Assembly: GCF_947492535.1 (NCBI RefSeq)
Contig: NZ_CANLNH010000008.1
Location: 120,518-184,517 of the forward strand
Source: an uncultured Dokdonia sp.
GTDB taxonomy: Bacteria; Bacteroidota; Bacteroidia; Flavobacteriales; Flavobacteriaceae
DNA length: 64,000 nucleotides
Direction: 5' to 3'
In this document: in pieces, positions 3,743-53,222 of the stretch
Layout: each line of letters begins with the position of its first letter
Position numbering within the stretch: position 1 is the first letter of the stretch
Position numbers and translations under genes: made by a program
The notes under the pieces: generated by a model
What the model saw: only the letters and a program-made list of their open reading frames with translations
Told to the model about the DNA's origin: nothing
Databases searched by the model: none

Positions 3743-4243
3743 ATGGCATCAGTAACCTTAGGGGGAACCCCAGTAAATACAATAAGCAACCTTCCTGAAG
3801 TAGGAAGTCCAGCACCAGCTTTTACGCTTTCGCGAAATGATCTTTCTTCTGTAACCCTTAATGATTATAGAGGTAAGAGATTAGTGTTAAATATCTTTCC
3901 AAGTGTAGATACGGGTGTTTGTGCTCAATCTATAAGAACATTTAATGAAAGAGCGAGTGCACTAGAAAATACAGAAGTTCTATGCATTTCTCGTGATCTA
4001 CCATTTGCGCAAGCTCGTTTTTGTGGTGCAGAAGGGATTGAGAATGTAAGTACACTTTCCGATTTTAAACGTGGTGAATTTGGAAAAGATTACGGAGTAG
4101 AACTTATAGATGGTGGTTTTGAAGGATTACATTCAAGAGCTATTGTCGTGGTAGATGATAAAGGAAAAGTAATTCATACAGAACAAGTTTCAGAGATAGG
4201 ACACGAGCCTAATTATGATGCTGCCCTTAATGCATTGTCATAG
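3743..4243 (+). CDS. tpx: Thiol peroxidase (atypical 2-Cys peroxiredoxin)
   Basis: FPSVDTGVCA and ISRDLPFAQARFCGAEG motifs; start set at ATG 3743 (MASVTLGG) rather than TTG 3686. Confidence 0.93.
   Translation: MASVTLGGTPVNTISNLPEVGSPAPAFTLSRNDLSSVTLNDYRGKRLVLNIFPSVDTGVCAQSIRTFNERASALENTEVLCISRDLPFAQARFCGAEGIENVSTLSDFKRGEFGKDYGVELIDGGFEGLHSRAIVVVDDKGKVIHTEQVSEIGHEPNYDAALNALS
3823..3837. repeat. Palindrome-family copy inside tpx (read as TLSRN)
   Basis: TACGCTTTCGCGAAA. Confidence 0.8.
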
Positions 4244-4245
4244 AG

Positions 4246-4608
4246 ATGCCAACTAGTTTTATAAAAGGACGTCTTAAAGGGTGTGTATACGCATTTAAAG
4301 GTGGAATACTCTTATTAAAATCGGAAGCGAGTATTCAAGTGCAATTTGGAATAGCAATACTTATTACAATTGCAGGTTTTTATTTTAAAATTTCACCTAC
4401 AGAATGGATGATACAAACCATATGCATCGGTATGGTAATGAGTATTGAAGGTTTAAATACAGCGGTTGAAGAAATTGCAGATTTTATACATCCTGATTTT
4501 CATAATAAAATAGGGAAAATTAAAGATATTGCTGCTGGTGCTGTAGGCATTGCAGCGCTTATTGCTGTAATTGTGGCAGGTATTATTTATGTCCCTAAGA
4601 TATTTTGA
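4246..4608 (+). CDS. dgkA: Diacylglycerol/undecaprenol kinase family
   Basis: E.LNTAVEEIADFIHPDFH..IG.IKDIAAGAV motif; three hydrophobic segments. Confidence 0.88.
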   Translation: MPTSFIKGRLKGCVYAFKGGILLLKSEASIQVQFGIAILITIAGFYFKISPTEWMIQTICIGMVMSIEGLNTAVEEIADFIHPDFHNKIGKIKDIAAGAVGIAALIAVIVAGIIYVPKIF

Positions 4609-4806
4609 TACTAAAATAATCATATAGAACACCTTACTTTAAGAAGTTATAAGCAATAAATAATAAAACCTAGGCTTATTGAAGATATCTCTGTGTATAA
4701 AAAGCTGTAATTGGGCACCAAATCCCCTATATTTCCGTTTCATATTTGTATTTTTAACCTGAATAATGCAGGTTTAACCTAACAACACAATCCAATCACT
4801 AGCTTA

Positions 4807-7299: not shown

Positions 7300-7939
7300 A
7301 GTGAGTATGCGATTTTTAATGAGTATGCTATTAATTTTGGGAGGTTACGCTTTCGCGAAAGCGCAATCAGCTCAATCATTACTCAAAGAAGTAGACAGTA
7401 AAGTAAAGAGCTATGAAAATATAGCCATCGACTTTAAATATGCATTAACCAATGAAGCTGAAGGTGTAAATCAAGAAACGAAAGGGAATGTTGTTTTAAA
7501 GGGAGATTTGTATGCACTTAATTTATTAGGAACGAAACAAATTTTTGACGGCGCTAGTATTTATACAATAGTTCCTGAAGATGAAGAAGTTACTATAAGT
7601 ACGGTAAGTGATCAGGATGAAAATGCAATCACACCATCCAAAATGCTTTCGTTCTTTAATGATGGGTATACCCAAAAAATGGATATTACTCAAAAAGTAA
7701 ATGGACGTACCATACAATATGTGAAATTAACCCCTATGGATTCTAATAGTGAAGTAAAACACACATTATTAGGTGTTGATACTACCACAAAACATATCTA
7801 TAGATTGATTATTGTACAAAAAAACGATACTAAAATTACAATTACAGTAAACTCATTTAAACCTAATCAGCCTATATCTGCAAAAGCATTTGTATTTGAT
7901 GAAAGTAAGTACACAGATTATTATATTAACAAAATATAA
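7292..7939 (+). CDS. lolA: Outer-membrane lipoprotein carrier LolA family
   Basis: Signal peptide ending AFAKA-Q; IFDGASIYTIVPEDEEVTIS and TPSKMLSF motifs; follows ftsK as is usual; start could be 7283, 7292 or 7307. Confidence 0.8.
   Translation: MNKVSMRFLMSMLLILGGYAFAKAQSAQSLLKEVDSKVKSYENIAIDFKYALTNEAEGVNQETKGNVVLKGDLYALNLLGTKQIFDGASIYTIVPEDEEVTISTVSDQDENAITPSKMLSFFNDGYTQKMDITQKVNGRTIQYVKLTPMDSNSEVKHTLLGVDTTTKHIYRLIIVQKNDTKITITVNSFKPNQPISAKAFVFDESKYTDYYINKI
7346..7363. repeat. Palindrome-family copy in lolA signal peptide (YAFAKA)
   Basis: TACGCTTTCGCGAAAGCG. Confidence 0.9.
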
Positions 7940-7999
7940 CAAGCACAGTACTGTAGGAATGAAGAAGGTATTGTATTTTTGTTTTCGATTTCCTAATTA

Positions 8000-10000: not shown

Positions 10001-10037
10001 TTCATGTATTCTATTCCGACAAACACACCATAATTCG

Positions 10038-10045
10038 TATCTTTG
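10038..10045 (+). promoter_or_regulatory. -7 promoter element for ribB
   Basis: TATCTTTG, 18 nt before ATG 10064. Confidence 0.7.
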
Positions 10046-10063
10046 TAACCAAAATAGCAACCT

Positions 10064-11206: not shown

Positions 11207-11235
11207 AATAAATATTTCTATAGAGGCTAATTTTC

Positions 11236-11312
11236 GTCAAGCTGAACTTGTTTCAGCTTCTCATCAAATTGATAAGTAACAGAATGAGATTCTGAAATAA
11301 ATTCAGAATGAC
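11236..11312. repeat. REP/MITE-like double-hairpin element with GTCA...TGAC ends
   Basis: GTC-AAGCTGAA-cttgt-TTCAGCTT-CTC ... GAG-ATTCTGAA-ataaa-TTCAGAAT-GAC. Confidence 0.7.
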
Positions 11313-11334
11313 ATTTCAAGATGTTTTTTTTGTA

Positions 11335-11354
11335 TACGCTTTCGCGAAAGCGTA
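11335..11354. repeat. Perfect 20-bp palindrome, intergenic
   Basis: TACGCTTTCGCGAAAGCGTA. Confidence 0.95.
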
Positions 11355-11452
11355 TGATATAAAGATTTTGATTTCTGCACTAAGTATGTTTGAAACATAG
11401 GATCAAATCAAAAACAATTAAGGATAAACTTTTAAACTCAAGTAACGGTTCG

Positions 11453-11460
11453 TACCTTTG
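11453..11460 (+). promoter_or_regulatory. -7 promoter element for lpdA
   Basis: TACCTTTG, 23 nt before ATG 11484. Confidence 0.7.
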
Positions 11461-11483
11461 TACGACTATATTAAAAAAAACTT

Positions 11484-12993: not shown

Positions 12994-14085
12994 ATGTACA
13001 GAACAACGCTTAAAATTTCTATCATATTCTTATATCTTATTATCATTGCTGGTGCTATTGTTAGGATGACAGGAAGTGGTATGGGATGTCCCGATTGGCC
13101 AAAATGTTTTGGGTATTATATACCACCTACAGAAGAAGCTCAAATTCAATGGGAACCTAATAAAGCGTATAAGAAGGGATATATTATCATTGTAGAAGAA
13201 TCACTGCGTATTGCACCCAAAGATTTTACATCTGCAGCTACGTATTCAGAAAGTAACTGGTCTACGTATGATAAGCATGATTATGCTACGTTTAATGTAT
13301 GGCAAACTTGGATAGAGTATATTAATCGACAAGTAACCGTACTAGCAGGAATCCCAATACTCTTAATGATTATTAGTGCTTTTTGGTATTGGAAACGTCG
13401 TCCGTGGCTTATTTTTGGTTCTTTCTTTGTACTACCGCTTATGGGGTTTGAAGCATGGTTAGGAAAACAAGTGGTAGATTCTAATTTACTTCCTGTAAAG
13501 ATCACCATTCATTTGATTGCAGCCTTAGTTATTGTTGCACTCTTATTATATCTATGGTATAAATCTCAGGAGAAGGAGGGGAGTACGCTTTCGCGAAATC
13601 GAACTCGTGAGATTCAAGATCATAGAGAGAGTGAAGCGTTAAAGCTTAAAAAGCATGACCCACTATTTAAAAACTTAGTGCTATTAGCTGGCGTATTGAC
13701 GTTAGTTCAAGTTGTGTTTGGAACTCAAGTACGTCAATATGTAGATGAACAAGTCATCGCTCTAGGATATGATGCTAAAGACCAATGGTTGAATCCGCCA
13801 ACAGTTATGTTTTATGTACATAGATCATTTTCTATACTTGTAACCCTACTGAATGTATACCTATTCTGGCGCAACCGAAAATACCTATTAGGACACGCCA
13901 ACTTAATGTTATGGATATTGATTCTTATTGCACTAGAAGTTGTGACAGGCATTGCGATGTATTATATAGATTTTCCATTTGGAACACAGCCCTTACATCT
14001 CGTAGTAGCTTCTCTATTATTTGGGGTACAGTTTTATGTGTATTTGGAGAGTATGAGGAGTAGAGAAGAAGTACGTACAGCGTAA
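12994..14085 (+). CDS. Heme A synthase (COX15/CtaA family)
   Basis: VRMTGSGMGCPDWPKCFG, WIEYINR, TIHL, VHRS, QPLHL motifs; 8 TM; carries an in-frame repeat at 13584-13648. Confidence 0.9.
   Translation: MYRTTLKISIIFLYLIIIAGAIVRMTGSGMGCPDWPKCFGYYIPPTEEAQIQWEPNKAYKKGYIIIVEESLRIAPKDFTSAATYSESNWSTYDKHDYATFNVWQTWIEYINRQVTVLAGIPILLMIISAFWYWKRRPWLIFGSFFVLPLMGFEAWLGKQVVDSNLLPVKITIHLIAALVIVALLLYLWYKSQEKEGSTLSRNRTREIQDHRESEALKLKKHDPLFKNLVLLAGVLTLVQVVFGTQVRQYVDEQVIALGYDAKDQWLNPPTVMFYVHRSFSILVTLLNVYLFWRNRKYLLGHANLMLWILILIALEVVTGIAMYYIDFPFGTQPLHLVVASLLFGVQFYVYLESMRSREEVRTA
13584..13648 (+). repeat. 65-bp composite palindrome element inside heme A synthase CDS
   Basis: 50/65 ungapped identity (manual count) to the reverse complement of 24625-24689. 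Confidence 0.85.
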
Positions 14086-14090
14086 AGACA

Positions 14091-16768: not shown

Positions 16769-18343
16769 TTACGAACTACAGGAGAGCATAGAGCATCCTA
16801 CTTTATGACGTGCCCATTCGGGACGTTTGGCAAACCAACGTTCATGTTTAGGTTGCTCATCGTATGGGTTTTTAAGAAGCGCATGAATCTCATCGAGAAG
16901 GTCATAATTCCCTTTATCGGCTTCATCGATGACGAGTTGCGAGATATAGTTACGTAATACATACTTAGGATTTACGGCATTCATCTGTTGCGCACGTTCA
17001 GCATCAGTTAATCGTTCTTGTGAAAGACGTTTGAGATAGTGTTGAAACCATGTTTCCCAGTTGGTATAGATAGCTCCTGTGATCTCTTCTGGTGTGTAGA
17101 AGGCCGCTTTCGCGAAAGCGTAAAAAACATCTTTCAAATTTTCAGTAGTGTCCTTAGATACCTGAGATAGATTCCTAAAGAAAATAGTCATATCGGTTTC
17201 TGAAGCTTGGAGGTTTTTTTCCAGATCAGCAATCAATTGAATATCTGTTTCTAGCGCTAATTGTAGCCCTAGTTTTTCTCGCATCATGGCGATATACTTT
17301 TTAGGGTACTCCGTATGGTAGCTCTGTAAAATTGCTTCTAATTGCGTGGTTTCTCCAATTAATGGAACCAATGCATTAGCAAGCTGTAAAAGATTCCAAA
17401 GTCCTATTTGCGGTTGATTTCCAAAACGATACCGTTTGTTTTGGCGATCGGTGGTATTTGGAGTCCATCCTGGATCATAGCCCTCTAGCCATCCATACGG
17501 ACCATAATCTATCGTAAGACCAAGAATAGACATATTATCAGTATTCATGACTCCGTGTACAAAACCAACACGTTGCCAATGCACAATCATGTTGAGCGTG
17601 TTTTGTACGACTTCATTGAAGAATCCAAGATACCCTTCTTTAGTGCCTTGTTCATAGTGTGGGTAGAAGTGTTTGATGGTATAATCAACGAGTGTTTTAA
17701 GTGTTTCTGTATCTTGGCGGCTTGCAAAGATTTCAAAATTTCCAAAGCGTATAAAACTTGGTGCCACACGACATACAATGGCACCTTTTTCATAAGCAGC
17801 ATTTCCGTCATATAAGACATCTCTTAATACTTGGTCTCCAGATAATGCGAGTGAAAGTGATCGTGTCGTAGGCACGCCCAAATGATACATAGCCTCACTA
17901 CATAAATGCTCTCGAATAGAAGACCTAAGTACTGCAAGTCCATCTGCCGTACGAGAATAGGGAGTTTCACCAGCGCCTTTAAGTTGTATTGCCCAACGCT
18001 TATTATGATGTGTGATTTCTGCTAGGTTAATAGCTCTACCATCCCCTAATTGCCCTGCCCAATGTCCAAATTGATGTCCGCCATAACACATTGCATACGG
18101 CGAAGTGCCTTCTTCTACATTGGCTCCTGTGACCATTTCAAGAAACGCTTTCGATTGCACATCGTCTTCTGAGAATCCAAGAGTCTCTGCCATCTCTTTA
18201 GATACTTGAAGTAGAGAAGGAGTTGATGGTATTCTAGGAGTTACATAAGAAAAACAAGCTTTGGCTACCTGTCGTCTTGTATTTGCGGTAGTAGGATCGG
18301 CAGGTAATTCTTGACTAAACGTGTTTTCTATAGATAATTGCAT
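16769..18343 (-). CDS. selO: SelO/YdiU protein adenylyltransferase
   Basis: YGGHQFG.WAGQLGDGRA, QLKGAG.TPYSR.ADG.AVLRSSIRE, HGVMNTDNMS, C-terminal SCSS; start 18343 supported by a -7 element. Confidence 0.93.
   Translation of the reverse strand: MQLSIENTFSQELPADPTTANTRRQVAKACFSYVTPRIPSTPSLLQVSKEMAETLGFSEDDVQSKAFLEMVTGANVEEGTSPYAMCYGGHQFGHWAGQLGDGRAINLAEITHHNKRWAIQLKGAGETPYSRTADGLAVLRSSIREHLCSEAMYHLGVPTTRSLSLALSGDQVLRDVLYDGNAAYEKGAIVCRVAPSFIRFGNFEIFASRQDTETLKTLVDYTIKHFYPHYEQGTKEGYLGFFNEVVQNTLNMIVHWQRVGFVHGVMNTDNMSILGLTIDYGPYGWLEGYDPGWTPNTTDRQNKRYRFGNQPQIGLWNLLQLANALVPLIGETTQLEAILQSYHTEYPKKYIAMMREKLGLQLALETDIQLIADLEKNLQASETDMTIFFRNLSQVSKDTTENLKDVFYAFAKAAFYTPEEITGAIYTNWETWFQHYLKRLSQERLTDAERAQQMNAVNPKYVLRNYISQLVIDEADKGNYDLLDEIHALLKNPYDEQPKHERWFAKRPEWARHKVGCSMLSCSS
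17105..17122. repeat. Palindrome-family copy inside selO (YAFAKA)
   Basis: CGCTTTCGCGAAAGCGTA. Confidence 0.9.
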
Positions 18344-20020: not shown

Positions 20021-21628
20021 CTATCCTTTAACTCCAGGTTGCTTAATTTCAAATCCGCCTTCGTCTGCTTTTGCCTTATCTACCATTGCTTTTACATCAC
20101 GTAATAGCTGTTTAGCATCATAGATAATACCATCTTTAATGGTGTATTTTACACCTCCTGCACGAATCACTTCATTATCTTCAGTGAGTTTGATAGCACC
20201 AGTTCCATACAGTACTTTTAAATTTTGAAGCGGGTTTTCATCTACAATCACAAAATCGGCTAGTTTACCTACTTGTACAGATCCTATTTTATCATCCATA
20301 CGTAGAGCTTCAGCACCATTAAGCGTTGCAGCTCTGATCACTTCCATAGGATGGAAACCAGCTTCTCTTAATAATTCTAATTCGCGTATATAGGCAAATC
20401 CATAGAGTTGAAAGATAAATCCAGAGTCAGATCCAGCAGTGACACGCCCTCCTCTGTTTTTATACTCGTTGATAAAGGTCATCCATAGACGGTAATTTTC
20501 GCGCCAAGCAACTTCTTCTTCCGTTCCCCAGAAATGCCAGTAGGATCCATGCGAAATTTTACTAGGTTGGTAGAAACGCCATAAAGAGGGTAGTGTATAG
20601 TCTTCATGCCACTCTGCACGGCGCGCTCTCATCAAATCACGACTTGCTTCATAGATATTAAAAGTAGGATCTAATGTAAAATCTAAGGCTAATAATTCTT
20701 CCATGACAGCATTCCAATGATCAGAATAAGGAGCTGCTGCTTGTTGCCATAATCTACCCGCTTCTCCAAAACGATGTTGCTCATTGTTATAATTATAATC
20801 TAAAGGATAATCCTGTACCGTACGATCTGTAAATAAGGCTTCAGGCAATCCATACCAATGTTCCATAGAAGTAAGTCCAGCTCTCGCCGAATTTAATACA
20901 TTCCATCTCGCTACACTTAATTGTGCGTGATGCATGGATGAGGTAAGACCTAATTTTTTATTTTCTTCCAATGCCGCCTGCATGATATGAGGTTCTGCGC
21001 CAAAAAACTTAATCCCATCTGCGCCTTTTTTTGCATTATCACGTACCCATTGTCTTGCTTGTTCTGCAGTAGTGATAGGCGTTTTACTTCCTTGCCCAAA
21101 ACCTGTATGTGCGACAATACGCGGTGCGATAATTTCATTTTTTGCAGATCTACGTTTTAAATCTAAGGCATAATCGATACCTCTTCCTGATGGTTCGCGC
21201 ACCGTTGTTACCCCATGTGCCATCCATAACTTAAACACATATTCCCAATCTGCGCCTTGAGCTACACCTCCAATATGTCCATGCATATCTACAAAACCAG
21301 GCAGCAGATACATCCCATTGGCATCAAGTTCTTTTCCTCCATTTTTAAGTTGCGGGCGTTTGGTAGCATCAATGGGTACGCCTGGATATCCTACTACCTT
21401 AATTTCTTTGATGATATTATTTTCTACGACAATATCTACGGGACCAATAGGCGGTGCGCCATCACCATTTATAACGGTGACACCTCGTATGATTAATTGA
21501 TTAAATGGACCTTGCTGTGTTTGCGCTCCTGCCTGTCGTGCTATATTTTGAGCCCTTGCGGCAGACAGGTTCGCGAAAGCGTATACAGTAAAAATAATAG
21601 TGAGTGTGAGAAGTAGTTGTTTTTTCAT
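20021..21628 (-). CDS. Exported amidohydrolase-superfamily metalloenzyme
   Basis: PGFVDMHGH, VTAGSD, GSVQVGKLADFVIV; signal peptide. Confidence 0.88.
   Translation of the reverse strand: MKKQLLLTLTIIFTVYAFANLSAARAQNIARQAGAQTQQGPFNQLIIRGVTVINGDGAPPIGPVDIVVENNIIKEIKVVGYPGVPIDATKRPQLKNGGKELDANGMYLLPGFVDMHGHIGGVAQGADWEYVFKLWMAHGVTTVREPSGRGIDYALDLKRRSAKNEIIAPRIVAHTGFGQGSKTPITTAEQARQWVRDNAKKGADGIKFFGAEPHIMQAALEENKKLGLTSSMHHAQLSVARWNVLNSARAGLTSMEHWYGLPEALFTDRTVQDYPLDYNYNNEQHRFGEAGRLWQQAAAPYSDHWNAVMEELLALDFTLDPTFNIYEASRDLMRARRAEWHEDYTLPSLWRFYQPSKISHGSYWHFWGTEEEVAWRENYRLWMTFINEYKNRGGRVTAGSDSGFIFQLYGFAYIRELELLREAGFHPMEVIRAATLNGAEALRMDDKIGSVQVGKLADFVIVDENPLQNLKVLYGTGAIKLTEDNEVIRAGGVKYTIKDGIIYDAKQLLRDVKAMVDKAKADEGGFEIKQPGVKG
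21570..21583. repeat. Partial palindrome copy in amidohydrolase signal peptide (YAFA)
   Basis: TTCGCGAAAGCGTA. Confidence 0.7.
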
Positions 21629-22251: not shown

Positions 22252-22271
22252 TACGCTTTCGCGAAAGCGTA
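22252..22271. repeat. Perfect 20-bp palindrome, intergenic
   Basis: TACGCTTTCGCGAAAGCGTA. Confidence 0.95.
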
Positions 22272-24624: not shown

Positions 24625-24689
24625 TACGCTTTACCGCTAAGCTCTCCCTCTGGTCGTGAATCTCGTAAACTCGCTTTCGCGAAAGCGTA
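24625..24689 (-). repeat. 65-bp composite palindrome element, intergenic
   Basis: TACGCTTT + 45 nt + CGCGAAAGCGTA; homologous to 13584-13648. Confidence 0.85.
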
Positions 24690-28315: not shown

Positions 28316-30781
28316 CGTACCATACCAACTCCCTCTAAAGTTAGGATTATCAGCAAAAAGGACGACACGACCACTCCCTTGTGGACTTACCACTAAAGAA
28401 GCCGATGGTTTTAAATTATCTTCCAAATTTTCTTCAGAAATAAAACCATCTATATGTGGGTCTTTCGTATACTTAGCTACTGTGTTATATTCATTTTTAC
28501 TAGGCGCTAACCATACATTATTATTCTTATAAACAGGCAAATCGCGGTAACGATATCCAAATCCAAGCGGGTGAGTGATATCTAAATCTACTTTGAAAAT
28601 AGCACCTCCTAAACGTTGTTTTCCTCTATTATTACGTGCATCTACATAGTTTTTACGTTCAGTTACTTTGGTTGTATCCTTTTTCTTTTCTGTTAGTTTT
28701 CCAGTAGCTATTTTTCGGTTAACTGCCCATGAAGTTGCACGCCCTATCGTAATGAGTGTATTCCCTTGAGATACCCATGTTTTAAGTTTTTGTACATCTC
28801 CATCAGAAAGCCGACTATAATTTCCAGAGACCATTACTAGGGTGTTGTACTTGCTAAGATCTGCAAATCGGAAGTTATTCATCAGAATCTTCGTAATAGG
28901 CATATGTACACGTGTATCGAGTAGATGCCATACCTCTCCCGCTTCATACGAACTCGTGCCATCCCCAATAAGCATGGCTGCTTTGGGCGTGTCAATTTTT
29001 GCAAAGTTACTACTCCCTAGATCAATTCCTTTAACACTAAAACCTGTATTTGTAGCATGAATAGGTACTTGAAAACGTTGCTGGGCTTCAGAAACAATGG
29101 TAAATACTTCATTTGCATCTAGTGACTGTCTACTCACAGGAACCAGAAGTGCTCCATAATTAAAATCTACGGTTCCATTTTGTGTTTTTGCAGTAAAGGA
29201 TTTAAAAGCCGTAGATACTGTAATTCCTTTTTGTTGAAGGTGATATAGTAATGCTGTAGCATTATAATCATCATAATCTATGAGATACGCATAGTTTGTT
29301 TTTGAAACTGGAGTCACTGTAGCGATACCATCTGTACTGGTTACTTCATTACTCAAACGAGGCACACTATTTAACCCTTTGTAGCGCATATTATAAAAAT
29401 TGGCGACACTCCATGCGCTGGCATCATAATACACACTATCGCGGTATTTGCTATACGTCTCAAAAAAAGATTGCACCATACGTTTTTGTGGTTGTGCTAC
29501 AGGCACTACATAGGTGCCATCTCCTTTTTTGTAGGTTTTAATTCGATGTAATAGAAGTTTGTCTATAAATGCTTTGGTACGATTTCGGTCGTTAGGATCT
29601 CCAAATTCATAAGCAACGGCTTGATCTGTTTTTGCTTTCGCGAAAGCGGATACAAAGAAATCTTGCTGGTATTTACGTAAACGAGCTTTATTCTCAACAG
29701 CTGCTTTAACCGTAGCAAAGCTAGAAGTATACTGATTACGAATCGTAAACGGAAAAGAAATCGTTCCAAAATCGGTGTCTTGTAAATGCCCTCGACTACT
29801 GGCTTGTTCAAAAAGCAATGCGAGTGCTCCTTGTAAGTCGGGATACGAACTTCCATAGCCAGGATAGGTGCCATCAAAGGCTTCTTTTGTAAAATAGAAA
29901 GACCCAATCTGATCTAATGCATCTGAAAAGTAAGGAGCAAAAAGGTTGTTGAGGTCTTCGTAGTTTTCTTTAGGCATGATAGGATTTAAACTCCCTATAG
30001 GTAACATAGGTTCAAAGAAGTGAGTGCTATTAGTGCCCATTTCGTGAAAATCGGTGACTACATTTGGATACCACTCGTGATACCAATTTAATTTCCCACG
30101 ACTCTCTGGATGAATCCCAAGTAACCAATCTCGGTTTAAGTCAAACCAATAATGATTGGTACGTCCTCGTGGCCACATTTCTGTATGTTCTGCATCAATA
30201 TTATCAGAGACAAGCGGTGATCCTTTAAAGCTATTTGCCCATTGCGTATGACGATCACGTCCGTCAGGATTAATGGTAGGATCTATAAAAATAATAGCAT
30301 TTTTACGGTAGTTGGCGATAGCTGCATGCTCTGAAGCAACGAGTGTGTAGGCTGTTAATAGAGCAGCTTCAGAACTAGAAGGCTCATTACCATGTACATT
30401 ATATCCTAATTGTATAAAAACTGGAACTTGATCATAATTTGTTGCTTTTTGCGAGGTATTAGAAAAAGCAAGATGCTGTTTTTTAATAGTTTCTAAGTTG
30501 GTGTGATTTTCTGGAGTAGCGATTGTAAGCATGACTAATTTTCTGCCTTCATGAGTACGACCGTATTCTGAAATAGTTGCTCGGTCAGATACTTCGGCAA
30601 GTTTTTCTAAATAAGAAACAATTTGATCATGTCGTGTATGCTGCTCTCCAATACCGTAGCCTAGAAATTCTTCAGGTGTTGGAATGCTTTGTTGAAAAGG
30701 AGTATATTTTGCAAAATAATAGTCTTGCGCTTTCGCGAAAGCGGATAAAAAGAGAATAATAATGAGTAAAGAACGTTTCAT
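28268..30781 (-). CDS. Exported M14 zinc carboxypeptidase-family protein
   Basis: NVHGNEPS, NPDGR, DLNRDW, DFHEMG; signal peptide. Confidence 0.9.
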   Translation of the reverse strand: MKRSLLIIILFLSAFAKAQDYYFAKYTPFQQSIPTPEEFLGYGIGEQHTRHDQIVSYLEKLAEVSDRATISEYGRTHEGRKLVMLTIATPENHTNLETIKKQHLAFSNTSQKATNYDQVPVFIQLGYNVHGNEPSSSEAALLTAYTLVASEHAAIANYRKNAIIFIDPTINPDGRDRHTQWANSFKGSPLVSDNIDAEHTEMWPRGRTNHYWFDLNRDWLLGIHPESRGKLNWYHEWYPNVVTDFHEMGTNSTHFFEPMLPIGSLNPIMPKENYEDLNNLFAPYFSDALDQIGSFYFTKEAFDGTYPGYGSSYPDLQGALALLFEQASSRGHLQDTDFGTISFPFTIRNQYTSSFATVKAAVENKARLRKYQQDFFVSAFAKAKTDQAVAYEFGDPNDRNRTKAFIDKLLLHRIKTYKKGDGTYVVPVAQPQKRMVQSFFETYSKYRDSVYYDASAWSVANFYNMRYKGLNSVPRLSNEVTSTDGIATVTPVSKTNYAYLIDYDDYNATALLYHLQQKGITVSTAFKSFTAKTQNGTVDFNYGALLVPVSRQSLDANEVFTIVSEAQQRFQVPIHATNTGFSVKGIDLGSSNFAKIDTPKAAMLIGDGTSSYEAGEVWHLLDTRVHMPITKILMNNFRFADLSKYNTLVMVSGNYSRLSDGDVQKLKTWVSQGNTLITIGRATSWAVNRKIATGKLTEKKKDTTKVTERKNYVDARNNRGKQRLGGAIFKVDLDITHPLGFGYRYRDLPVYKNNNVWLAPSKNEYNTVAKYTKDPHIDGFISEENLEDNLKPSASLVVSPQGSGRVVLFADNPNFRGSWYGTNKLFFNALFFGSLIN
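29634..29648. repeat. Palindrome-family copy inside M14 gene (AFAKA)
   Basis: GCTTTCGCGAAAGCG. Confidence 0.88.
30728..30743. repeat. Palindrome-family copy in M14 signal peptide (SAFAKAQ)
   Basis: CGCTTTCGCGAAAGCG. Confidence 0.9.
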
Positions 30782-33549: not shown

Positions 33550-33589
33550 TATGCTTTCGCGCTTGCCTGCTGGTAGGTAGGAAAACGTA
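33550..33589. repeat. Palindrome copy split by a second, degenerate 20-bp palindrome
   Basis: TATGCTTTCGCG [CTTGCCTGCTGGTAGGTAGG] AAAACGTA. Confidence 0.65.
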
Positions 33590-39302: not shown

Positions 39303-40070
39303 CTATTCAATAATCAGATGGGGTACTTTATCCAATTTCCAATCTATAACAAGTCCTCCAGCAAGAGAACGCGCAATTTCTGCTCCATATAAATGCTCTG
39401 CTAGGTAGAGTGCTGCTTCAAAACTTTTGGCACCACCTGCTGAGGTTATGTACTTGTCATCGTGAACAAATAATACTTCCTTACGAATATCAAGCTGTGG
39501 AAATGTTTCACGCATCTTGTCTATGTCACTAGGGAAAGTAGTGGATACTTTTCCATCCAATAATCCTGCTTTTGCTAGAACAAATGCACCATCACAATGT
39601 GAGGTGATAAATTGTGCATTTTGATCTACCTTTTTGACAAAATCAATCATTACTTGGTCATCTAAATCAGTATCTAGATGGTGTTCTGCGCTTGGTACTA
39701 CCAGAATATCGATGTTAGGTAGGTCTGGTGCTGTATAATCAAAGTCGGGTAGGAGGTACATGCCTTCAAATGTTCGGATTGGGTCTAGGGTATTTGCTAC
39801 CGTAAATACATTCATCTGCTTGATGTTTTCGCGATACTGTGTATGTTGAAAGATATCAAAAGGCGCTGTGAGTTCTGTGTTATAGGTTCCGTCCATGATT
39901 AGAAAGGCGACATTATATCGCCCTTCTTTTAGTTCTGGTTTTGCTTTCGCGAAAGCGTTATTAGACGTAGTAATTTCTGTATTAGGCACCTCTGTTTCTA
40001 TCTGTTTTCCTTCTTTAGTCTCGCAAGAGTAGAGTGCTAGTACCGCTATTAGAATAAATAGATGCTTCAT
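39303..40070 (-). CDS. DJ-1/PfpI-family lipoprotein
   Basis: Lipobox LYSC; ELTAPFD, SHCDGAFVLAKAGLLDG, TSAGG. Confidence 0.87.
   Translation of the reverse strand: MKHLFILIAVLALYSCETKEGKQIETEVPNTEITTSNNAFAKAKPELKEGRYNVAFLIMDGTYNTELTAPFDIFQHTQYRENIKQMNVFTVANTLDPIRTFEGMYLLPDFDYTAPDLPNIDILVVPSAEHHLDTDLDDQVMIDFVKKVDQNAQFITSHCDGAFVLAKAGLLDGKVSTTFPSDIDKMRETFPQLDIRKEVLFVHDDKYITSAGGAKSFEAALYLAEHLYGAEIARSLAGGLVIDWKLDKVPHLIIE
39943..39958. repeat. Palindrome-family copy in DJ-1 protein linker (AFAKA)
   Basis: GCTTTCGCGAAAGCGT. Confidence 0.88.
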
Positions 40071-41562: not shown

Positions 41563-42204
41563 ATGAAAATTTATATTTTTTTAGTTGTTTTTGCTTTCGC
41601 GAAAATTGCTATTTGTCAGACAGATACAGCGTTAACTGATCATCATAAATTATTAATAGAACACGCTCAGAAACATCAAGATTCACTTTCGGAAGTATAT
41701 AAAAACCCAGAAACGTCTATTCTAAGTAAGAAGCAATTAAAAAAATTTCATGGATTAGAATTCTATCCCATCGACTTAAAATTTCGCGTAAGCGCAACCT
41801 TTACTAGAACACCAAATTCAACACCATTTCCTATGGCTACTTCTACAGGTATTCCTAGAACGTATGTGAAATATGGAGAAGTAACTTTTGATCTATTAGG
41901 AAAAACACATACACTTTCCATTTATCAAAACCCAACATTTACAGCGACACCTAATCATAAATATGCAGATCATCTCATGCTAGGTTTTACAGATTATACG
42001 AGTGGAGACGGTTCTTATGGAGGGGGACGATATGTAGATATAGGCATATCAGATATAAGAGACAACCAGTTAATCATTGATTTTAATAAAGCCTATAATC
42101 CCTATTGCGCATATACTGAAGGGTATTCCTGTGCCATTCCTCCTGATGATAATGATGTTACCATTAGAATAGAAGCGGGTGTGAAGGATTATGGAAAGCA
42201 TTAA
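41563..42204 (+). CDS. DUF1684-family protein
   Basis: FTDYTSGDGSYGGGRYVD, IDFNKAYNPYCAY...YSCAIPP. Confidence 0.9.
   Translation: MKIYIFLVVFAFAKIAICQTDTALTDHHKLLIEHAQKHQDSLSEVYKNPETSILSKKQLKKFHGLEFYPIDLKFRVSATFTRTPNSTPFPMATSTGIPRTYVKYGEVTFDLLGKTHTLSIYQNPTFTATPNHKYADHLMLGFTDYTSGDGSYGGGRYVDIGISDIRDNQLIIDFNKAYNPYCAYTEGYSCAIPPDDNDVTIRIEAGVKDYGKH
41593..41604. repeat. Palindrome-family copy in DUF1684 signal peptide (AFAK)
   Basis: GCTTTCGCGAAA. Confidence 0.8.
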
Positions 42205-43241: not shown

Positions 43242-43246
43242 ATATA

Positions 43247-45577: not shown

Positions 45578-45635
45578 AATTTTTTAGAGTTTTGGTTAGT
45601 AATTAGTTGATTAATACCGGTAATAATTCTAAGTC

Positions 45636-45653
45636 CGCTTTCGCGAAAGCGTA
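45636..45653. repeat. Palindrome-family copy, intergenic
   Basis: CGCTTTCGCGAAAGCGTA. Confidence 0.92.
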
Positions 45654-45712
45654 TAAAGACCCCATCTTATTGCGAGCTATCGTAGTATTCATTATGTATA
45701 TGCTATATATTA

Positions 45713-47209: not shown

Positions 47210-47274
47210 GTATTTAAAATTTTATAAAACCTATTATCTTAACTATTAATTATTTCGATTGCTATTCATTGATA

Positions 47275-48564: not shown

Positions 48565-48598
48565 GAGTCTTGTTTATTACTATTGTTTTTCTTTAGTG

Positions 48599-48618
48599 TA
48601 CGCTTTCGCGAAAGCGTA
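48599..48618. repeat. Perfect 20-bp palindrome, intergenic
   Basis: TACGCTTTCGCGAAAGCGTA. Confidence 0.95.
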
Positions 48619-48624
48619 TATATA

Positions 48625-51600
48625 TTATTTTAAATAGTCACTGGTGATTGAAACGTTGATTTGAACGATATCTCCAGTTCTATTAAATAGCTGCTGACTT
48701 ACTATTTCATCAAGGCTGAGTCCTTCAAAAATCTGTGATGTCCCTTTTTTAGAATGTACCTCTACACTCGATTTTTCAGAAATGGTATACATAACGGGCA
48801 CTTGACAATAGGTAAAGCACATCGCCTCTTTTGGAATAGTAATCGTTTGTTTATTTTGGTTTATATCTATGTAATCAAATGATTGTGGGGTCTTTAAAAA
48901 TTCTGATTTACGAAGCATGTCTGGACTAAATTGGAGTTTGCCTTCTCGTACAAAGACACCTAATTCTCCAAAACGACTTAGAATATCTTCTTTTACTTGT
49001 CCCGTCATTCCTGGTTGTTGCGCTCCTTTACCCGCAGGTGTATGCGAGTAGGGGTCTGTTGGAAATGCTCCATATAATTTAGGAGATTTATGAACACCAA
49101 TCCCTTCATTGATTTCATAATAGTGTTCTAACAATCGGCCAATAATAGCGTCACTTTCATTTTCTTTGATGGCTTTTAAACAACATTCTTGAACTGCCAG
49201 TAATAGTTTAGATACCATATGCCAGTAAATAGAACCAAGTCCTTCATAACCAAAAAAGGTACCTGATCTTCCTGTAAATGCCTTGTGATTAAATACCATT
49301 TCATAGGTGTCTAATATATGTTGGCGCTCTTTCGTGATAAGTGATTGATATGCTGGGCCTAATGTGTCTAAGGCTTCGTTGAGCATTTTGGCATTATTAA
49401 AGGTACCATTGAAATGGTAGTTCCCCTTGATATCCTTTTGTATGATTTGCGTATTGCCATCCGTAAGAAGTTGCTGTAATAATTGAGATGCAGTAACTGC
49501 TTTTTCAGGGATATTATTTTTATCTAAAAACTTTAATAACTCTTTATTTGGATAGAGGATATAACTGTATTGATCTTCTCTAAATAAAGCACTGTTTTTT
49601 AATGCATCTAGCACCGCTAGGTTTTCTTTAGAACTTAAATATCCTGAACTTAGCACGGCTACTTGTCCTTCTAACATTTCGTCTAAATAGCTTATAGAAA
49701 CTTCTTTATCGCCTTCTTGCGTCATTAAGTTATAGGCGTGATATAAGTTGTCTTCTCTTGTATTTGCATCAATAGTATGTTCTATATATGCTAGGGTAGT
49801 AGTAACAAAATCAGCAATGTTAGCCAAAGAAATGTCTTTCTTTTTTCCAGAAAAGGCATGTTGATATACGCGGGTTCTATAGGTGCTTGCAGGTGTTGCT
49901 AGACCATCTAAAATAGCTTTGCGTGCACTGTCAGATATAGCGCCGTTTAGTACATTTTTATGAGCGCTTAGTGTCAATGTAACACTATTATAAAATTCTA
50001 GTAACTCTTCAGATATTTGAGATTCTTTTACAGAAGCATTTGCTATAATCTCTCCAAAGAATGTAAGAAAACGTCTTAAGTAATACAGTGTTACCATAGA
50101 TACACCATTACCTACGAGTGCATTGTTTGCATCATTCCATTCCGGACGTTGTGTATTTAACCAGATTCCAGCTTCAGGAATAAAGTTAGAGACTTTAGCC
50201 AAGACCGTAGCCAGTATTTTTTCTATGAAATTTACAGTATAAATACGACCATTTGCATCTTGTATAAGTGCACCGTCTACACCCAAAGTAGCTCTTCTTT
50301 CGTTGATCTTATGATCAAGATCAAAGTCAAAATTTATAGTGTCTTTTGGGTTTTTTAAGATGTCTGAGTAGCTTTTAATTTTATAAGGAACATTTGCATA
50401 TACAAAGAGGTCTTTATCAAAATAACTAGCTAATTTCCCAGGAGTATGGTTTTCAATAATCTCTAAAAACTTCTGTAAATAGATAATTTGATGATCACCC
50501 CAGTACCCAATATACGCCCATGGATTGTCTTCTTCAATCACTTCCCAGTCAAATCCGCCTTTTGTAACTCGGTATGGGTTATATCCATCAAAAGTGGTTG
50601 CATTTAGAAATTTATGAATCATGCTCTCGATAAACTCAGGGTAGGAGAGGGCTAGTGCTTCCCAATTTTGGAAAATATCTCTCCAGTTTCCTTCGTAATC
50701 TAATACCTTAGAACCATCGATCTCGCTTCGTGTATTGATTGAAAATTTATTCCAAGGCCTACTTGGATCCCCATGCCTTCTACTAAACTTTAAGGGCATG
50801 TATTCTAAGCAAAGTCTTTTAAAATGAGGATCGTCACTTTGAGATGCGAGTTCCTTAAGATCTGAAAGTGTAAATAGATCAGGTAGTTTATTAATAGTCG
50901 CTTTCTCTTGTTTATAAACGGTTGTATTTGCTTTCGCTAAATAGTGCTCGAAATCCCATTTTTCTATTTGATAGTTTTTATCAAAAATGCCACCTCTCAT
51001 AATATTGAAAAGTGTATTTGCAAAATGCCGTGTATTTCGAAGTTCGTTAGCACTTAGCTGCATCGCATCAGATGCGCCTGCAAGTTCTAAAAGATGTGTT
51101 GTTCCTTTATCAATATCTTCTTGTACTAACTCCATAAGATTTGGAGTTGTTTGTATTTTTTCAGAGATCGCTGTGATGGAACTTATGGTATAGTTTACAT
51201 CAATAATGAGCATCCATTGTTTTTGCTGTTTACTACCTAATTCAAGGTCTGTAGTTACAAAATAAGCACCTCGCTCTGCTTTTACATCTGTTTCTTGATG
51301 AAGGGTGCCTCCGCGTCTAAATGTATCTAGTTGTAGTGATGATACTAGATATGTAGGTTGTTCAATCCCTAATGACCAAGCAATGTTACTTTTTAATGCT
51401 TCACTAGGTTCTGCTTTATCAACTATGGTGGCACTAAGTGCATACATACCTACACCAGAATCAGTGATAAGTTCATTGCGTTTATAGGCATCTACCAAAT
51501 TGCTACTCGCTTTTTGTAGATCTTCACCTACACTATATGGAATGATATTTTGTAGCCCGTCAAGTACGGTTACTTTGATAGGAGTATCAAGATCATTTAC

Positions 51601-52095
51601 CAAGGTCGATTTTTTGACAAAACCATAGGCATCACTAGTACTCCATTGGTATCTATAAGTCAGCCCTAAATCAGTATTATGTTCTTCAAAAACCACTTTA
51701 TTGCCATACTCATTTTTATACAAGTTTAGAGTGATTTTGTACACTCCTTTATATGTATTTGAAAAAGGCTCCCATAAATACGTTTTACCATCTTTATGAA
51801 CATGATACATTGTTTTGCTTCCTGTTACATTTGCAGATTCGGTAATTTTATCGTCTGTATAATAGGGAAATAATGCATTGTCAGAATCTTTTCTCCCAGC
51901 CGATAATCCTCCATTACTAGCAATAAACATCCAATGGTTTGAGTTGCTAATAAGACTCATAAAGAAGGGCCTCATTTGGTCACTATTAGATATTTTATAA
52001 TAGACTTCGTTATCTAATGTGATAAGTTCACCTTTAATTTCTTGATCATTAAAAGTGGCTTGTTTATTTCCTATGTAAATAGATTGTTCTGTCAT
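48625..52095 (-). CDS. Probable GH149 beta-1,3-glucan phosphorylase
   Basis: 1156 aa, no signal peptide; RRHGDPSRPWN, YEGNWRDIFQNWE, GYWGDHQ, PEWNDANNALVG, FPTDPYSHTP; GH16/17/30 context (recognised from memory, not searched). Confidence 0.75.
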   Translation of the reverse strand: MTEQSIYIGNKQATFNDQEIKGELITLDNEVYYKISNSDQMRPFFMSLISNSNHWMFIASNGGLSAGRKDSDNALFPYYTDDKITESANVTGSKTMYHVHKDGKTYLWEPFSNTYKGVYKITLNLYKNEYGNKVVFEEHNTDLGLTYRYQWSTSDAYGFVKKSTLVNDLDTPIKVTVLDGLQNIIPYSVGEDLQKASSNLVDAYKRNELITDSGVGMYALSATIVDKAEPSEALKSNIAWSLGIEQPTYLVSSLQLDTFRRGGTLHQETDVKAERGAYFVTTDLELGSKQQKQWMLIIDVNYTISSITAISEKIQTTPNLMELVQEDIDKGTTHLLELAGASDAMQLSANELRNTRHFANTLFNIMRGGIFDKNYQIEKWDFEHYLAKANTTVYKQEKATINKLPDLFTLSDLKELASQSDDPHFKRLCLEYMPLKFSRRHGDPSRPWNKFSINTRSEIDGSKVLDYEGNWRDIFQNWEALALSYPEFIESMIHKFLNATTFDGYNPYRVTKGGFDWEVIEEDNPWAYIGYWGDHQIIYLQKFLEIIENHTPGKLASYFDKDLFVYANVPYKIKSYSDILKNPKDTINFDFDLDHKINERRATLGVDGALIQDANGRIYTVNFIEKILATVLAKVSNFIPEAGIWLNTQRPEWNDANNALVGNGVSMVTLYYLRRFLTFFGEIIANASVKESQISEELLEFYNSVTLTLSAHKNVLNGAISDSARKAILDGLATPASTYRTRVYQHAFSGKKKDISLANIADFVTTTLAYIEHTIDANTREDNLYHAYNLMTQEGDKEVSISYLDEMLEGQVAVLSSGYLSSKENLAVLDALKNSALFREDQYSYILYPNKELLKFLDKNNIPEKAVTASQLLQQLLTDGNTQIIQKDIKGNYHFNGTFNNAKMLNEALDTLGPAYQSLITKERQHILDTYEMVFNHKAFTGRSGTFFGYEGLGSIYWHMVSKLLLAVQECCLKAIKENESDAIIGRLLEHYYEINEGIGVHKSPKLYGAFPTDPYSHTPAGKGAQQPGMTGQVKEDILSRFGELGVFVREGKLQFSPDMLRKSEFLKTPQSFDYIDINQNKQTITIPKEAMCFTYCQVPVMYTISEKSSVEVHSKKGTSQIFEGLSLDEIVSQQLFNRTGDIVQINVSITSDYLK

Positions 52096-52206
52096 TTGTC
52101 ATTTTTCATAATAATGGTCATATGTAGCGTCCATTATTAGTAATACATTTTATTTTACTTGATATATCAAATAAAACAATAGCTCAATTAGATTGTATAT
52201 TAATAT

Positions 52207-52245
52207 CTATAGCATCAAACTCGATATATTGTTTTGATGCTATAG
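52207..52245. terminator. Intergenic stem-loop between GH16 and GH149
   Basis: CTATAGCATCAAA ... TTTGATGCTATAG. Confidence 0.6.
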
Positions 52246-52272
52246 AGGATAGTCTCTTGTTATGCGTTTTGA

Positions 52273-53139
52273 TTAGTTTCCTATCTCATATATACGCACA
52301 TAGTCTACGATCATTTGTTGAGGTAGCGGTGTTGCATCTACAGGGAAACCAACAAAAGTTCCACCTACAGCAACATTTAATAACATAAAGAATGGTTGAT
52401 CATCAAAAACCCAGTCGGTTCCATTTGGAATATCGCTTTTGTTTATTCTATTAAAACGAACACCATCAATAAAGTAGTCTATAAAATCAGGGCTCCACTC
52501 AATAGCAAACTCATGAAATTCTGCATCAAAACGCTCATCAATAAGATCCAACTCGCCAGAGATAGCACCACCTCCAGAATATCCAGGACCGTGTATGCTA
52601 CCAATCGTTCTAAAAGGCTCTTGACCTCTCATTTCGGTGATATCTATTTCACCTACAAAGGGCCATGCAATCGTAGCTGGGTCATCATCTGGTTCGGTTT
52701 CAATATTACTCCCTAGCATCCAGAAAGCGGGCCATACACCACGACCTCCTGGCATTTGAATACGTGCTTCAAAACGACCATATTGCTGCTCTACTTTGTC
52801 TCTTGTATTTATTCTAGCAGATGTAAAAGCAGCTCCTTGAAAGTTTTCTCTGCGCGCAGTAATCACCATATTTCCTTCACCGTCTAGAGAAACATTTTCA
52901 GGACGGTCTGTGTAGTATTGTAGTTCTTGATTTCCCCATCCGTTATTACCAGTACCGATATCAAAATTCCAAAATTCGGTATTGATAGATGCACCAGCTT
53001 CTCCATCAAAGTCATCTTCAAAAACTAGGTTGAGATTAGTCAAACCGATCGTACTTCCTTCGTCTTCATTACAACTTAGCACAGCCATACAGATCAAGCT
53101 GTATGCGATGCCTTTTAAGATTACATTTTTTATTTTCAT
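52273..53139 (-). CDS. GH16 laminarinase-type lipoprotein
   Basis: WGNQELQYY, WPAFWMLG, EIDITE (ExDxxE); lipobox VLSC. Confidence 0.92.
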   Translation of the reverse strand: MKIKNVILKGIAYSLICMAVLSCNEDEGSTIGLTNLNLVFEDDFDGEAGASINTEFWNFDIGTGNNGWGNQELQYYTDRPENVSLDGEGNMVITARRENFQGAAFTSARINTRDKVEQQYGRFEARIQMPGGRGVWPAFWMLGSNIETEPDDDPATIAWPFVGEIDITEMRGQEPFRTIGSIHGPGYSGGGAISGELDLIDERFDAEFHEFAIEWSPDFIDYFIDGVRFNRINKSDIPNGTDWVFDDQPFFMLLNVAVGGTFVGFPVDATPLPQQMIVDYVRIYEIGN

Positions 53140-53202
53140 TTTTCTTTTTTTATGAGAAACAAAAGATATCGGATCAAGGAGTACTGTAGTACTGTTTCTG
53201 AG

Positions 53203-53222
53203 TACGCTTTCGCGAAAGCGTA
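53203..53222. repeat. Perfect 20-bp palindrome, intergenic
   Basis: TACGCTTTCGCGAAAGCGTA. Confidence 0.95.

Follow-up and report, generated by a model that had tools for sequence, protein, structure and literature searches.

What is a 20-bp palindrome doing, over and over again, both in and between the genes of an ordinary flavobacterial chromosome? The question is raised by 64,000 nucleotides from an uncultured Dokdonia sp. (contig NZ_CANLNH010000008.1, positions 120,518 to 184,517 of the forward strand; this whole stretch is called the window here), in which the 12-mer GCTTTCGCGAAA marks 15 sites with 27 strand matches where 100 dinucleotide-preserving shuffles give an expectation of 0.01, and in which 13 20-mers lie within three mismatches of the palindrome TACGCTTTCGCGAAAGCGTA. 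A preliminary description of this DNA had counted the same 15 sites and left the choice between a minimal mobile palindrome that also colonises open reading frames (ORFs) and a genome-wide recognition code held by a protein. In what follows, I will argue for the second: within the Flavobacteriaceae, the Dokdonia/Nonlabens clade very probably has in this palindrome a recognition motif of its own on double-stranded DNA, spread over the whole genome, a motif that is sequence-specific and neither mobile nor acting as RNA and whose two half-sites of 7-10 bp form the pattern that a homodimeric DNA-binding protein would read.

Confinement to the window, which the preliminary description had said would refute a genome-wide role, is not seen: the motif occurs genome-wide across Dokdonia and Nonlabens loci. 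The exact 20-mer is present in at least 117 stretches of public genomes, nearly all of them Dokdonia or Nonlabens among the matches listed, and these matches are scattered over contigs of 3.3-3.4 Mb. Two samples of loci are unbiased for the motif because they were collected via a neighbouring protein, either FtsK or the glycoside hydrolase (GH) GH30. The FtsK sample has 3-8 copies in each of 7/7 Dokdonia-clade loci and none in 73 loci of other Flavobacteriaceae, while the GH30 sample has 31 copies in 124 kb of Dokdonia (6/6 clade loci, one per 4.0 kb), 19 copies in 99 kb of Nonlabens (5/5 loci, one per 5.2 kb) and, in the 69 loci from other genera, no more than one copy (in Algibacter), so that the other Flavobacteriaceae of both samples (~140 loci) hold one copy altogether. 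Across the FtsK-sample loci of eight genomes (209.6 kb) there are 57 copies, or one per 3.7 kb, which extrapolates to roughly 900 per genome, and the mismatch histogram of the same DNA is bimodal, with these 57 copies at 0-5 mismatches and the background at 9-15, as expected of a discrete sequence family. The information content lies in an invariant 14-mer, GCTTTCGCGAAAGC; preference continues, more weakly, as far as 20 bp (C at position 3 in 77% of copies, T at position 1 in 81%), where conservation ends, and half-sites without the central CGCG do not occur. A literature search turned up no paper that contains the motif sequence or connects Dokdonia with palindromes, uptake sequences or transformation.

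Constraint is visible in the DNA itself. At orthologous coding sites, pairs of codons that specify one and the same amino acid never differ within the core (198 of 198 identical), compared with 293 of 566 (52%) in the flanking codons. Free synonymous variation beneath a constant peptide, which the preliminary description had held to be incompatible with DNA-level selection, is absent from the orthologues save in one lineage: the DUF1684 protein of D. pacifica keeps the peptide AFAK as GCT TTT GCA AAA, and the motif has been lost there via two synonymous changes. The signal peptide of LolA contains GCT TTC GCG AAA GC(G/T) in 8/8 Dokdonia-clade genomes, a set that is unselected because all eight carry the motif, and its upstream hydrophobic region varies freely; the FtsK linker, otherwise too divergent to align, keeps the motif unchanged. 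The same holds between genes. The intergenic copies at window positions 45640, 48605 and 53209, in a polysaccharide-utilisation locus, occupy the same gene junctions in 6/6 Dokdonia-clade loci, and the junction copy of 48605 is also there in 5/5 Nonlabens loci, although the surrounding spacers are unalignable. The motif thus shares with palindromes of the HIP1 type (highly iterated palindrome 1) both the conservation of its sites between genomes, within and between ORFs, and the state of a palindromic oligomer that is more than 15-fold over-represented in coding and non-coding DNA. Genome-wide occurrence in one lineage, conservation at synonymous sites and gene junctions, and the lack of compensatory changes discussed below together support the recognition code with its putative protein reader.

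The copies and their settings in the window are as follows.

3823..3842, half copy TACGCTTTCGCGAAATGATC inside the thiol peroxidase gene tpx, read FTLSRND
7346..7365, copy TACGCTTTCGCGAAAGCGCA, coding for YAFAKA|Q in the cleavage region of the LolA1 signal peptide
11335..11354, perfect 20-mer, intergenic, with the ribBA stop codon 128 nt before it
13584..13648, composite copy, TACGCTTTCGCG with a 45-nt in-frame insertion and AAAGCTTA, in a loop of CtaA/COX15
17103..17122, copy GCCGCTTTCGCGAAAGCGTA inside selO/ydiU, the minus strand reading YAFAKAA
21529..21583, split copy near the N-terminus of an amidohydrolase, its intact arm TTCGCGAAAGCGTA (21570-21583) beside a 41-nt GC-rich hairpin module
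within 21529..21583, minus strand, the hairpin module of that amidohydrolase copy, CCTGTCTGCCG...CGACAGGCAGG
22252..22271, perfect 20-mer, intergenic, with the stop codon of a PorZ-like gene 26 nt before it
24625..24689, composite of an extra left arm TACGCTTT, 37 nt and CTCGCTTTCGCGAAAGCGTA, intergenic, 23 nt past a stop codon
26402..26421, perfect 20-mer, intergenic
29631..29650, copy TTTGCTTTCGCGAAAGCGGA inside an M14 peptidase-like ORF, SAFAKAK
30726..30745, copy TGCGCTTTCGCGAAAGCGGA, SAFAKA|Q, in the signal-peptide cleavage region of the same M14 peptidase-like ORF as the 29631 copy
33550..33589, split copy, TATGCTTTCGCG with 20 nt (CTTGCCTGCTGGTAGGTAGG) and AAAACGTA, intergenic
39940..39959, copy TTTGCTTTCGCGAAAGCGTT, NAFAKAK, lying in a DJ-1/PfpI lipoprotein's N-terminal linker
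41590..41609, half copy TTTGCTTTCGCGAAAATTGC, FAFAKIA, within a DUF1684 protein's signal peptide
45634..45653, copy TCCGCTTTCGCGAAAGCGTA, intergenic, separating the GH30 glucanase from the GPH transporter
48599..48618, perfect 20-mer, 6 nt past a stop codon, between genes of the polysaccharide-utilisation locus
53203..53222, perfect 20-mer, 45 nt past a stop codon, between the GH16 and CBM4_9 genes

All sites of the preliminary description are present, some shifted by an immaterial 1-3 nt, and its partial copy at 21570 and split copy at 33550 are real; a scan with the 8-mer TTCGCGAA returns 16 window sites, every one in a palindrome context and including the partial copy, and the split copy lacks this 8-mer. 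The G+C content that it had assumed (~35%) agrees with the 0.31-0.37 measured, and the ORF map places all five perfect 20-mers (11335, 22252, 26402, 48599 and 53203) between genes, as it had said. Of 16 sites classified, nine are coding and seven intergenic, and since the palindrome has no stop codon in any of its three frames, as was also noted at the outset, it can be read through: the nine coding copies, described earlier as YAFAKA or TLSRN, comprise seven that read xAFAKx and two that read TLSRN. Four of them encode a signal-peptide cleavage region (Y/S/F)AFAKA|Q (LolA1, amidohydrolase, M14 peptidase and DUF1684 protein), one lies in a lipoprotein linker, and four lie within Tpx, SelO, the M14 peptidase and the CtaA loop.

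The same division holds in the wider sample, where ~55% of copies in unbiased loci lie in ORFs and where AFAKA is the commonest reading over all copies, followed by LSR(K/N) and then RFRES. The intergenic copies are the most perfect ones. Within a sample of 145 of these, itself biased towards perfect copies, the median distances are 39 nt to a stop codon and 104 nt to a start codon, and 95 lie between co-directional, 34 between divergent and 16 between convergent genes. Copies are also spaced more evenly than random, with a coefficient of variation of 0.60 for the window (P=0.03) and of 0.53 across eight, partly orthologous, loci (P<0.001).

How did so many copies come to be there? The preliminary description had pointed to ortholog alignments as the means of telling insertion from substitution, and at four coding sites the answer is substitution, because a same-length replacement is seen in four conserved proteins. 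Tpx carries TTTACGCTTTCGCGAAATGA (FTLSRND) in four genomes, the orthologous copy being identical in L118, L120 and L125, whereas L121-L123 have FTLSKND, FSLSKND or FTLTKND, with 4-6 nt different and no indel, and the alignment is gapless in all outgroups. The LolA signal peptides of outgroups are of equal length and end in VTLVQA|Q, ATASA|Q or AAANA|Q; a TonB-dependent receptor has SAFAKANY against SANLNATY in the outgroup, and a phage terminase has IAFAKAV against LKAAKQT in Winogradskyella phage Peternella_1, both without an indel. In L128, the LolA gene has the near-match GCAGCTGCGAACGCT in place of the motif GCTTTCGCGAAAGCG, and A-x-A|Q signal-peptide cleavage regions are natural near-matches to the motif. 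What is shown is that new copies come about where they stand, through point substitutions at mutation-tolerant places that already nearly match, namely signal-peptide cleavage regions (AFAKA|Q), protein linkers and loops, and the DNA just past stop codons, and that they are then retained for genus-level times.

Phages carry the motif as well, and not all of them. In IMG/VR, the 16-mer is found in 42 stretches, with single matches in high-GC contigs at chance level and ~15 contigs with 2-7 copies. One Mu-like myophage contig (L219, L236, L239; IMGVR_UViG_3300040781_000495) has seven copies in 27.9 kb at a GC of 0.42-0.48, and encodes a portal, terminase (54% identical to that of Peternella_1), protease, capsid, sheath and baseplate; six copies were checked against ORFs (L219, L236), and 6/6 are inside genes with all three frames in use. 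Other phage contigs hold 2-4 copies, and some encode a tape-measure protein or an HK97-type portal and capsid. Peternella_1, whose Winogradskyella host lacks the motif, has no copies, nor does the lytic-type Nonlabens phage P12024S in its 35.7 kb, a phage with its own Erf and exonuclease and no annotated integrase, and among 50,697 records of cultured phages none has 17 nt or more of the motif, chance matches apart. This pattern suggests that the motif tracks long residence in the host chromosome and not mere replication in the cell. It can be added that L219/L236/L239, L215 and L225 are uncultured Mu-like flavobacterial myophages related to Peternella_1, that their GC of 0.42-0.48 compares with 0.35-0.38 in the presumed hosts, yet their palindrome density is host-like, and that their copies sit within portal, terminase and tail genes.

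The closest outgroups have a hyper-abundant motif of their own, ATTTCCGAAG, which takes the form (A)TTTCCGAAG, is non-palindromic and occurs in both orientations. Per 22 kb, there are 17 copies in Patiriisocius (10 of them intergenic), nine per locus in two Altibacter loci and, in three related metagenome-assembled genomes (MAGs), 5-7, against 0.15 expected, and it is absent from the Dokdonia clade except for two copies in L123. Copies often form nearby inverted pairs, and in ORFs they read x-S-E-x on either strand.

L134 (Patiriisocius), e.g. 3938, 3980, 14678, 14751, 14812, 22162 and 22237, copies of (A)TTTCCGAAG; also present in L126, L136, L141, L144 and L148

What, then, would such a motif be for? 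Uptake sequences and HIP1 are the known classes that behave like it, and on that ground I place first a DNA-uptake or kin-recognition signal that would serve natural transformation, as a tentative reading of this analysis that I hold to be possible but somewhat short of probable, followed by chromosome organisation and then by methylation or repair, a Chi-like signal, a mobile element and an RNA hairpin. With uptake sequences, the motif has in common that it is a hyper-abundant oligomer, lineage-specific with sister dialects, gained by substitution in tolerated frames and evenly spaced. Copies would be kept by selection on each site or by transmission bias; fragments that bear the motif would be preferentially taken up or recombined, so that it would accumulate and spread evenly over the chromosome and long-resident prophages, and ATTTCCGAAG of the sister genera would be another dialect of the signal. 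Several points weigh against this. No competence phenotype of Dokdonia or Nonlabens was found in the literature, and neither clustering of genes near copies nor a regex scan for methyltransferases brought up a receptor or co-distributed protein. A self-regulated binding protein was also considered and rejected, as the 110 genes clustered, each with its start no more than 150 nt downstream of an intergenic copy, include no recurrent family, the only repeats being orthologous ones, namely AhpC and an Lrp/AsnC regulator beside a met gene. The uptake sequences known to date are 9-12 nt long and asymmetric, whereas the Dokdonia/Nonlabens motif is a perfect palindrome of 14-20 bp; the Mu-like prophage of H. 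influenzae Rd is not known to carry uptake sequences, whereas the Mu-like phages here have a host-like motif density; some length-changing events do occur at motif sites, in the rare composite and split copies; and a role in chromosome organisation would lead one to expect even spacing and conservation just as much.

That role is the strongest rival, although I consider it rather unlikely. An abundant protein that associates with the nucleoid or organises the chromosome would bind the copies: as a dimer on ~900 even sites it would structure, segregate or protect the chromosome, like Noc on its NBS (Noc-binding sites), SlmA on its SBS (SlmA-binding sites) or MatP on matS but on a larger scale, or like the proposed role of HIP1 in nucleoid structure. 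A palindrome with independently varying half-sites fits a dimer on duplex DNA, and the even spacing, the long conservation of sites inside and outside genes, and the presence of the motif in temperate, chromosome-resident phages with its absence from a lytic-type phage all agree with it; Xu et al. argue the same role for HIP1 (Xu et al., 2018; PMC5861425). However, the known systems have 10-100 sites with a regional bias and not ~900 uniform ones, the 110 downstream genes yielded no candidate protein, and the swap to a non-palindromic 9-10-mer in the sister genera is left unexplained.

A link to methylation or repair in the style of HIP1 is less probable again, and I regard it as improbable: on this view an orphan methyltransferase would act on the core TTCGCGAA/TCGCGA, and methyl-directed or sequence-directed repair or recombination would have enriched the motif. 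It is true that the palindrome embeds a restriction-like core of 6-8 bp, TCGCGA, that methyltransferases are co-distributed with HIP1 (PMC4390886), and that TCGCGA is rare outside palindromes (1 observed against ~6 expected under an independent-base model), but this deficit is not significant after correction for CpG depletion, conservation spans 14-20 bp and thus well beyond a methyltransferase site, and biased repair leads to modest enrichment and not to one above 10^3-fold. A regex motif scan of ~1.1 Mb of DNA from the clade, a weak test, found scattered unrelated candidates and no clade-wide methyltransferase. Restriction avoidance around TCGCGA/CGCG was considered separately and likewise set aside, as it is not significant once CpG depletion is taken into account.

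The mobile palindrome of the preliminary description has to be weighed with a small subfamily of copies in mind. About 1.4% of copies (5/355 core sites, plus two degenerate ones) are composite or split, with 20-65 nt inserted at or beside the centre of the palindrome.

Window 13584-13648, 21529-21583, 24625-24689 and 33550-33589; L242 11558-11642; L027, L110, L076 and L106: composite or split sites

Composites have the structure TACGCTTTCGCG-AAA(T/G)CG(A/T)A, then 37-57 nt of a shared module (37-65 nt if composite and split copies are taken together), CTCGTGAGACCTGTCTGCC GGCAGGCAGGTTCACGAC TAGAGGGAGAATGAAATGGT (also seen as CTCGTGAGACCTGTCTGCC..GGCAGGCAGGTTCACGAC..GGGAGA..GGT), then a second arm AAAGCGTA, and they stand at non-orthologous places in D. 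pacifica, Dokdonia sp. 746 and the window. The window ctaA gene has its 45-nt in-frame insertion relative to L118, the closest relative, where there is a plain copy TACGCTTTCGCGAAAGCTCA; the amidohydrolase copy carries its 41-nt hairpin in the same manner, and further split copies have small CTGCC...GGCAG hairpins at the centre. Length-changing events at the palindrome centre thus do occur, but they are rare and secondary, and the composite insertion may be a tiny element that targets the palindrome. Could all copies be remnants or minimal forms of a small non-autonomous element, similar to miniature inverted-repeat transposable elements (MITEs) or repetitive extragenic palindromic (REP) sequences, in which the 20-mer is two abutting terminal repeats that lost their internal part and were spread by a transposase acting in trans? 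The shared module with its repeated arm at non-orthologous sites and the ctaA insertion speak for this, as does the spacer between GH30 and the GPH transporter, which is 110-190 nt with the motif in Dokdonia and 5-50 nt without it in Nonlabens and outgroups. I nevertheless find the proposal very unlikely, since substitution without indels accounts for the four coding sites, ~55% of copies are within ORFs, flanks are unconserved past 20 bp with no target-site duplication, sites are stable across genera and not polymorphic, composites make up just 5/355 sites, and no transposase or integrase was found among the scanned window ORFs of at least 100 aa (the main non-nested ones), as the preliminary description had noted. 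Of MITE features, the 20-mers have neither internal sequence nor duplication, and the 5/355 composites have the shared internal module and the repeated 8-nt arm. A mobile palindrome colonising ORFs is therefore not supported for most copies (Tpx, LolA, the TonB-dependent receptor and the terminase among them) and survives in the composite and split residue. A family of REP/REPIN type with its REP-associated tyrosine transposase (RAYT) was rejected on the same grounds, as the copies are not strictly extragenic.

Uptake or kin recognition and the composite copies could be joined in a single picture, which I offer as doubtful in its entirety: marine Flavobacteriaceae may possess genus-specific self-recognition DNA signals, with GCTTTCGCGAAAGC and ATTTCCGAAG as dialects, a putative receptor, and uptake or recombination biased to kin, while the hairpin module would be parasitic and insert precisely at the centre of the motif, in frame even in genes.

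A further reading, a signal of 'self' comparable to Chi that a nuclease or recombination complex would recognise so as to spare motif-bearing DNA, and that temperate phages relying on host recombination would acquire, is no less unlikely than wholesale mobility. One copy per 3.7 kb does resemble the density of Chi in E. coli, and temperate phage contigs have the motif whereas the Nonlabens phage with its own Erf and exonuclease does not, but Chi is an asymmetric 5-8 nt sequence co-oriented with replication, whereas the motif is a palindrome of 14-20 bp, and the sister-genus motif has no strand bias over 22 kb. An RNA-level hairpin (a terminator, a stabiliser of mRNA 3' ends or a translation-pause element) is scarcely credible, for although intergenic copies lie a median of 39 nt past stop codons and the 20-mer can form an 8-bp stem with a CGCG loop, the stem is weak (-7.3 kcal/mol for the 20-mer as RNA, and -2.1 kcal/mol for the invariant 14-mer as DNA) and has no T-run, complementary pairs at the outer positions of 124 imperfect copies with an intact core are not in excess, half of the copies are inside ORFs, including essential genes, 34/145 intergenic copies lie between divergent gene starts, and downstream of ribBA in L122 and L123 the palindrome comes after a canonical hairpin and T-run terminator. 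The hairpin hypothesis is rejected for the absence of covariation, the weak folding energy and the placement after true terminators, and the intrinsic terminator with it; of three intergenic copies in the region at 40-56 kb, a terminator consensus scan picked out just one, and this on the opposite strand from the genes.

The remaining content of the window can be given briefly. Its source is a relative of Dokdonia pacifica, the closest relatives being D. pacifica (92% amino-acid identity, GH30) and an uncultured Flavobacteriaceae MAG (88%, FtsK). A lookup for exact protein matches returned nothing, and of the sequencing runs none contains the window at high identity and none is RNA. Its genes include tpx, dgkA, ftsK, lolA, lptF/G-like, ribBA, lpdA, ctaA, selO, an amidohydrolase, an M14 peptidase and a hybrid two-component regulator, with no tRNA gene in the window, no RAYT gene among its scanned ORFs and no Rfam match for the window or the composite element. 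A laminarin-type polysaccharide-utilisation locus at 42333-58667 comprises two GH17 genes, the GPH transporter, GH30, GH16, a CBM4_9 protein and large unannotated ORFs; its gene order is kept in Dokdonia, Nonlabens and many further genera, and three palindrome copies, two of them perfect 20-mers, lie between its genes. In L119-L125, ~150-300 nt downstream of ribBA, there is a conserved structured segment on the reverse strand, GGCAAGCTACCTACATCACAC..CCCTGGGGGATTC..GCCGCTGCAAA, which looks like the gene for signal recognition particle (SRP) RNA; in the window and L118, lpdA occupies that place, so that synteny breaks exactly where the intergenic palindrome 11335 sits. CCGG is ~4-fold depleted in the window (14 observed against ~60 expected from base composition), with GATC at expectation, which hints at a CCGG-specific restriction-modification system in the organism. 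In public Dokdonia RNA runs (X16-X19, assembled contigs; L122 6001-18500), contigs end exactly at palindromes and thousands of contig pieces of ~40 nt are heaped there, so the repeat fragments short-read assemblies of these genomes; as evidence of transcript ends these runs are uninformative, because the assembled contigs cover everything and break at palindromes.

Why should a palindrome of this kind matter? It is rare for an oligomer to be kept hyper-abundant by selection or transmission bias, and with every known class a process at work across the genome has come to light: Chi is tied to recombination, the uptake signal sequences (USS) of Haemophilus and DNA uptake sequences (DUS) of Neisseria to DNA uptake, and HIP1 is still debated after 30 years. 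The palindrome would add a new case from another phylum, among marine bacteria that can be cultured and matter ecologically, with Dokdonia sp. MED134 as a laboratory model; if an uptake signal, it would be the first such system in Bacteroidota and would use a dimer-type palindromic site. It is also tractable, as a long perfect palindrome makes the pull-down of a binding protein straightforward, the sister genera provide a natural comparison of dialects, and phages exist with and without the motif. The motif forces particular codons into signal peptides and protein loops, could mark the DNA of Dokdonia, Nonlabens and their temperate phages in metagenomes and, should it promote uptake, would offer a route to genetic tools for these bacteria.

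Among known systems, Chi differs in being short, asymmetric and co-oriented with replication where the motif is a 14-20 bp palindrome. REP/REPIN-RAYT families resemble it as short palindromic repeats in hundreds of copies, often just past genes, and a few copies here have nested hairpin modules; however, REPs are strictly extragenic, imperfect, 20-40 bp long with a conserved GTAG head, and spread as insertions, whereas about half of the copies here lie in ORFs and arose by substitution, and no RAYT was seen among the scanned window ORFs. Noc-NBS, SlmA-SBS and parS share the format of 14-16 bp palindromes with TTTC...GAAA arms, bound by a dimer on duplex DNA and spread along the chromosome, and differ in having few sites with a regional bias. 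The consensus arms of parS and NBS are spaced by N4, while the motif has TTTC-N2-GAAA. USS and DUS share with the motif one copy per ~1-4 kb, even spacing, enrichment just past genes, copies in ORFs only in tolerated frames and peptides and arising by substitution, and lineage dialects, for which ATTTCCGAAG in Patiriisocius, Altibacter and relatives is the counterpart; the differences are that those oligomers are asymmetric, their readers being a competence pilus or receptor and their hosts proven to be competent, whereas the motif here is a perfect palindrome, and that temperate phages here carry it at host-like density. Closest of all is HIP1 (GCGATCGC) of the cyanobacteria, likewise a hyper-abundant, lineage-specific palindrome in and between genes with orthologous sites kept, conserved within and between ORFs at quasi-periodic spacing (PMC5861425), not mobile, and long without a function, for which an uptake or nucleoid role has been proposed (PMC5861425, PMC4390886, bioRxiv 10.64898/2026.06.24.733823); it has been tied to transformation (bioRxiv 10.1101/2024.09.10.611283 and 10.64898/2026.06.24.733823) and put forward as an uptake signal (bioRxiv 10.64898/2026.06.24.733823). 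HIP1 differs in sequence and phylum, in its conserved 8 bp against 14-20 bp, its 300-2700 copies per Mb against ~270, its phylum-level against genus-level range, and in its GATC and CGATCG methyltransferases, where the weak scan here found none co-distributed; the Dokdonia/Nonlabens motif is thus an analogue of HIP1 and not a member of it.

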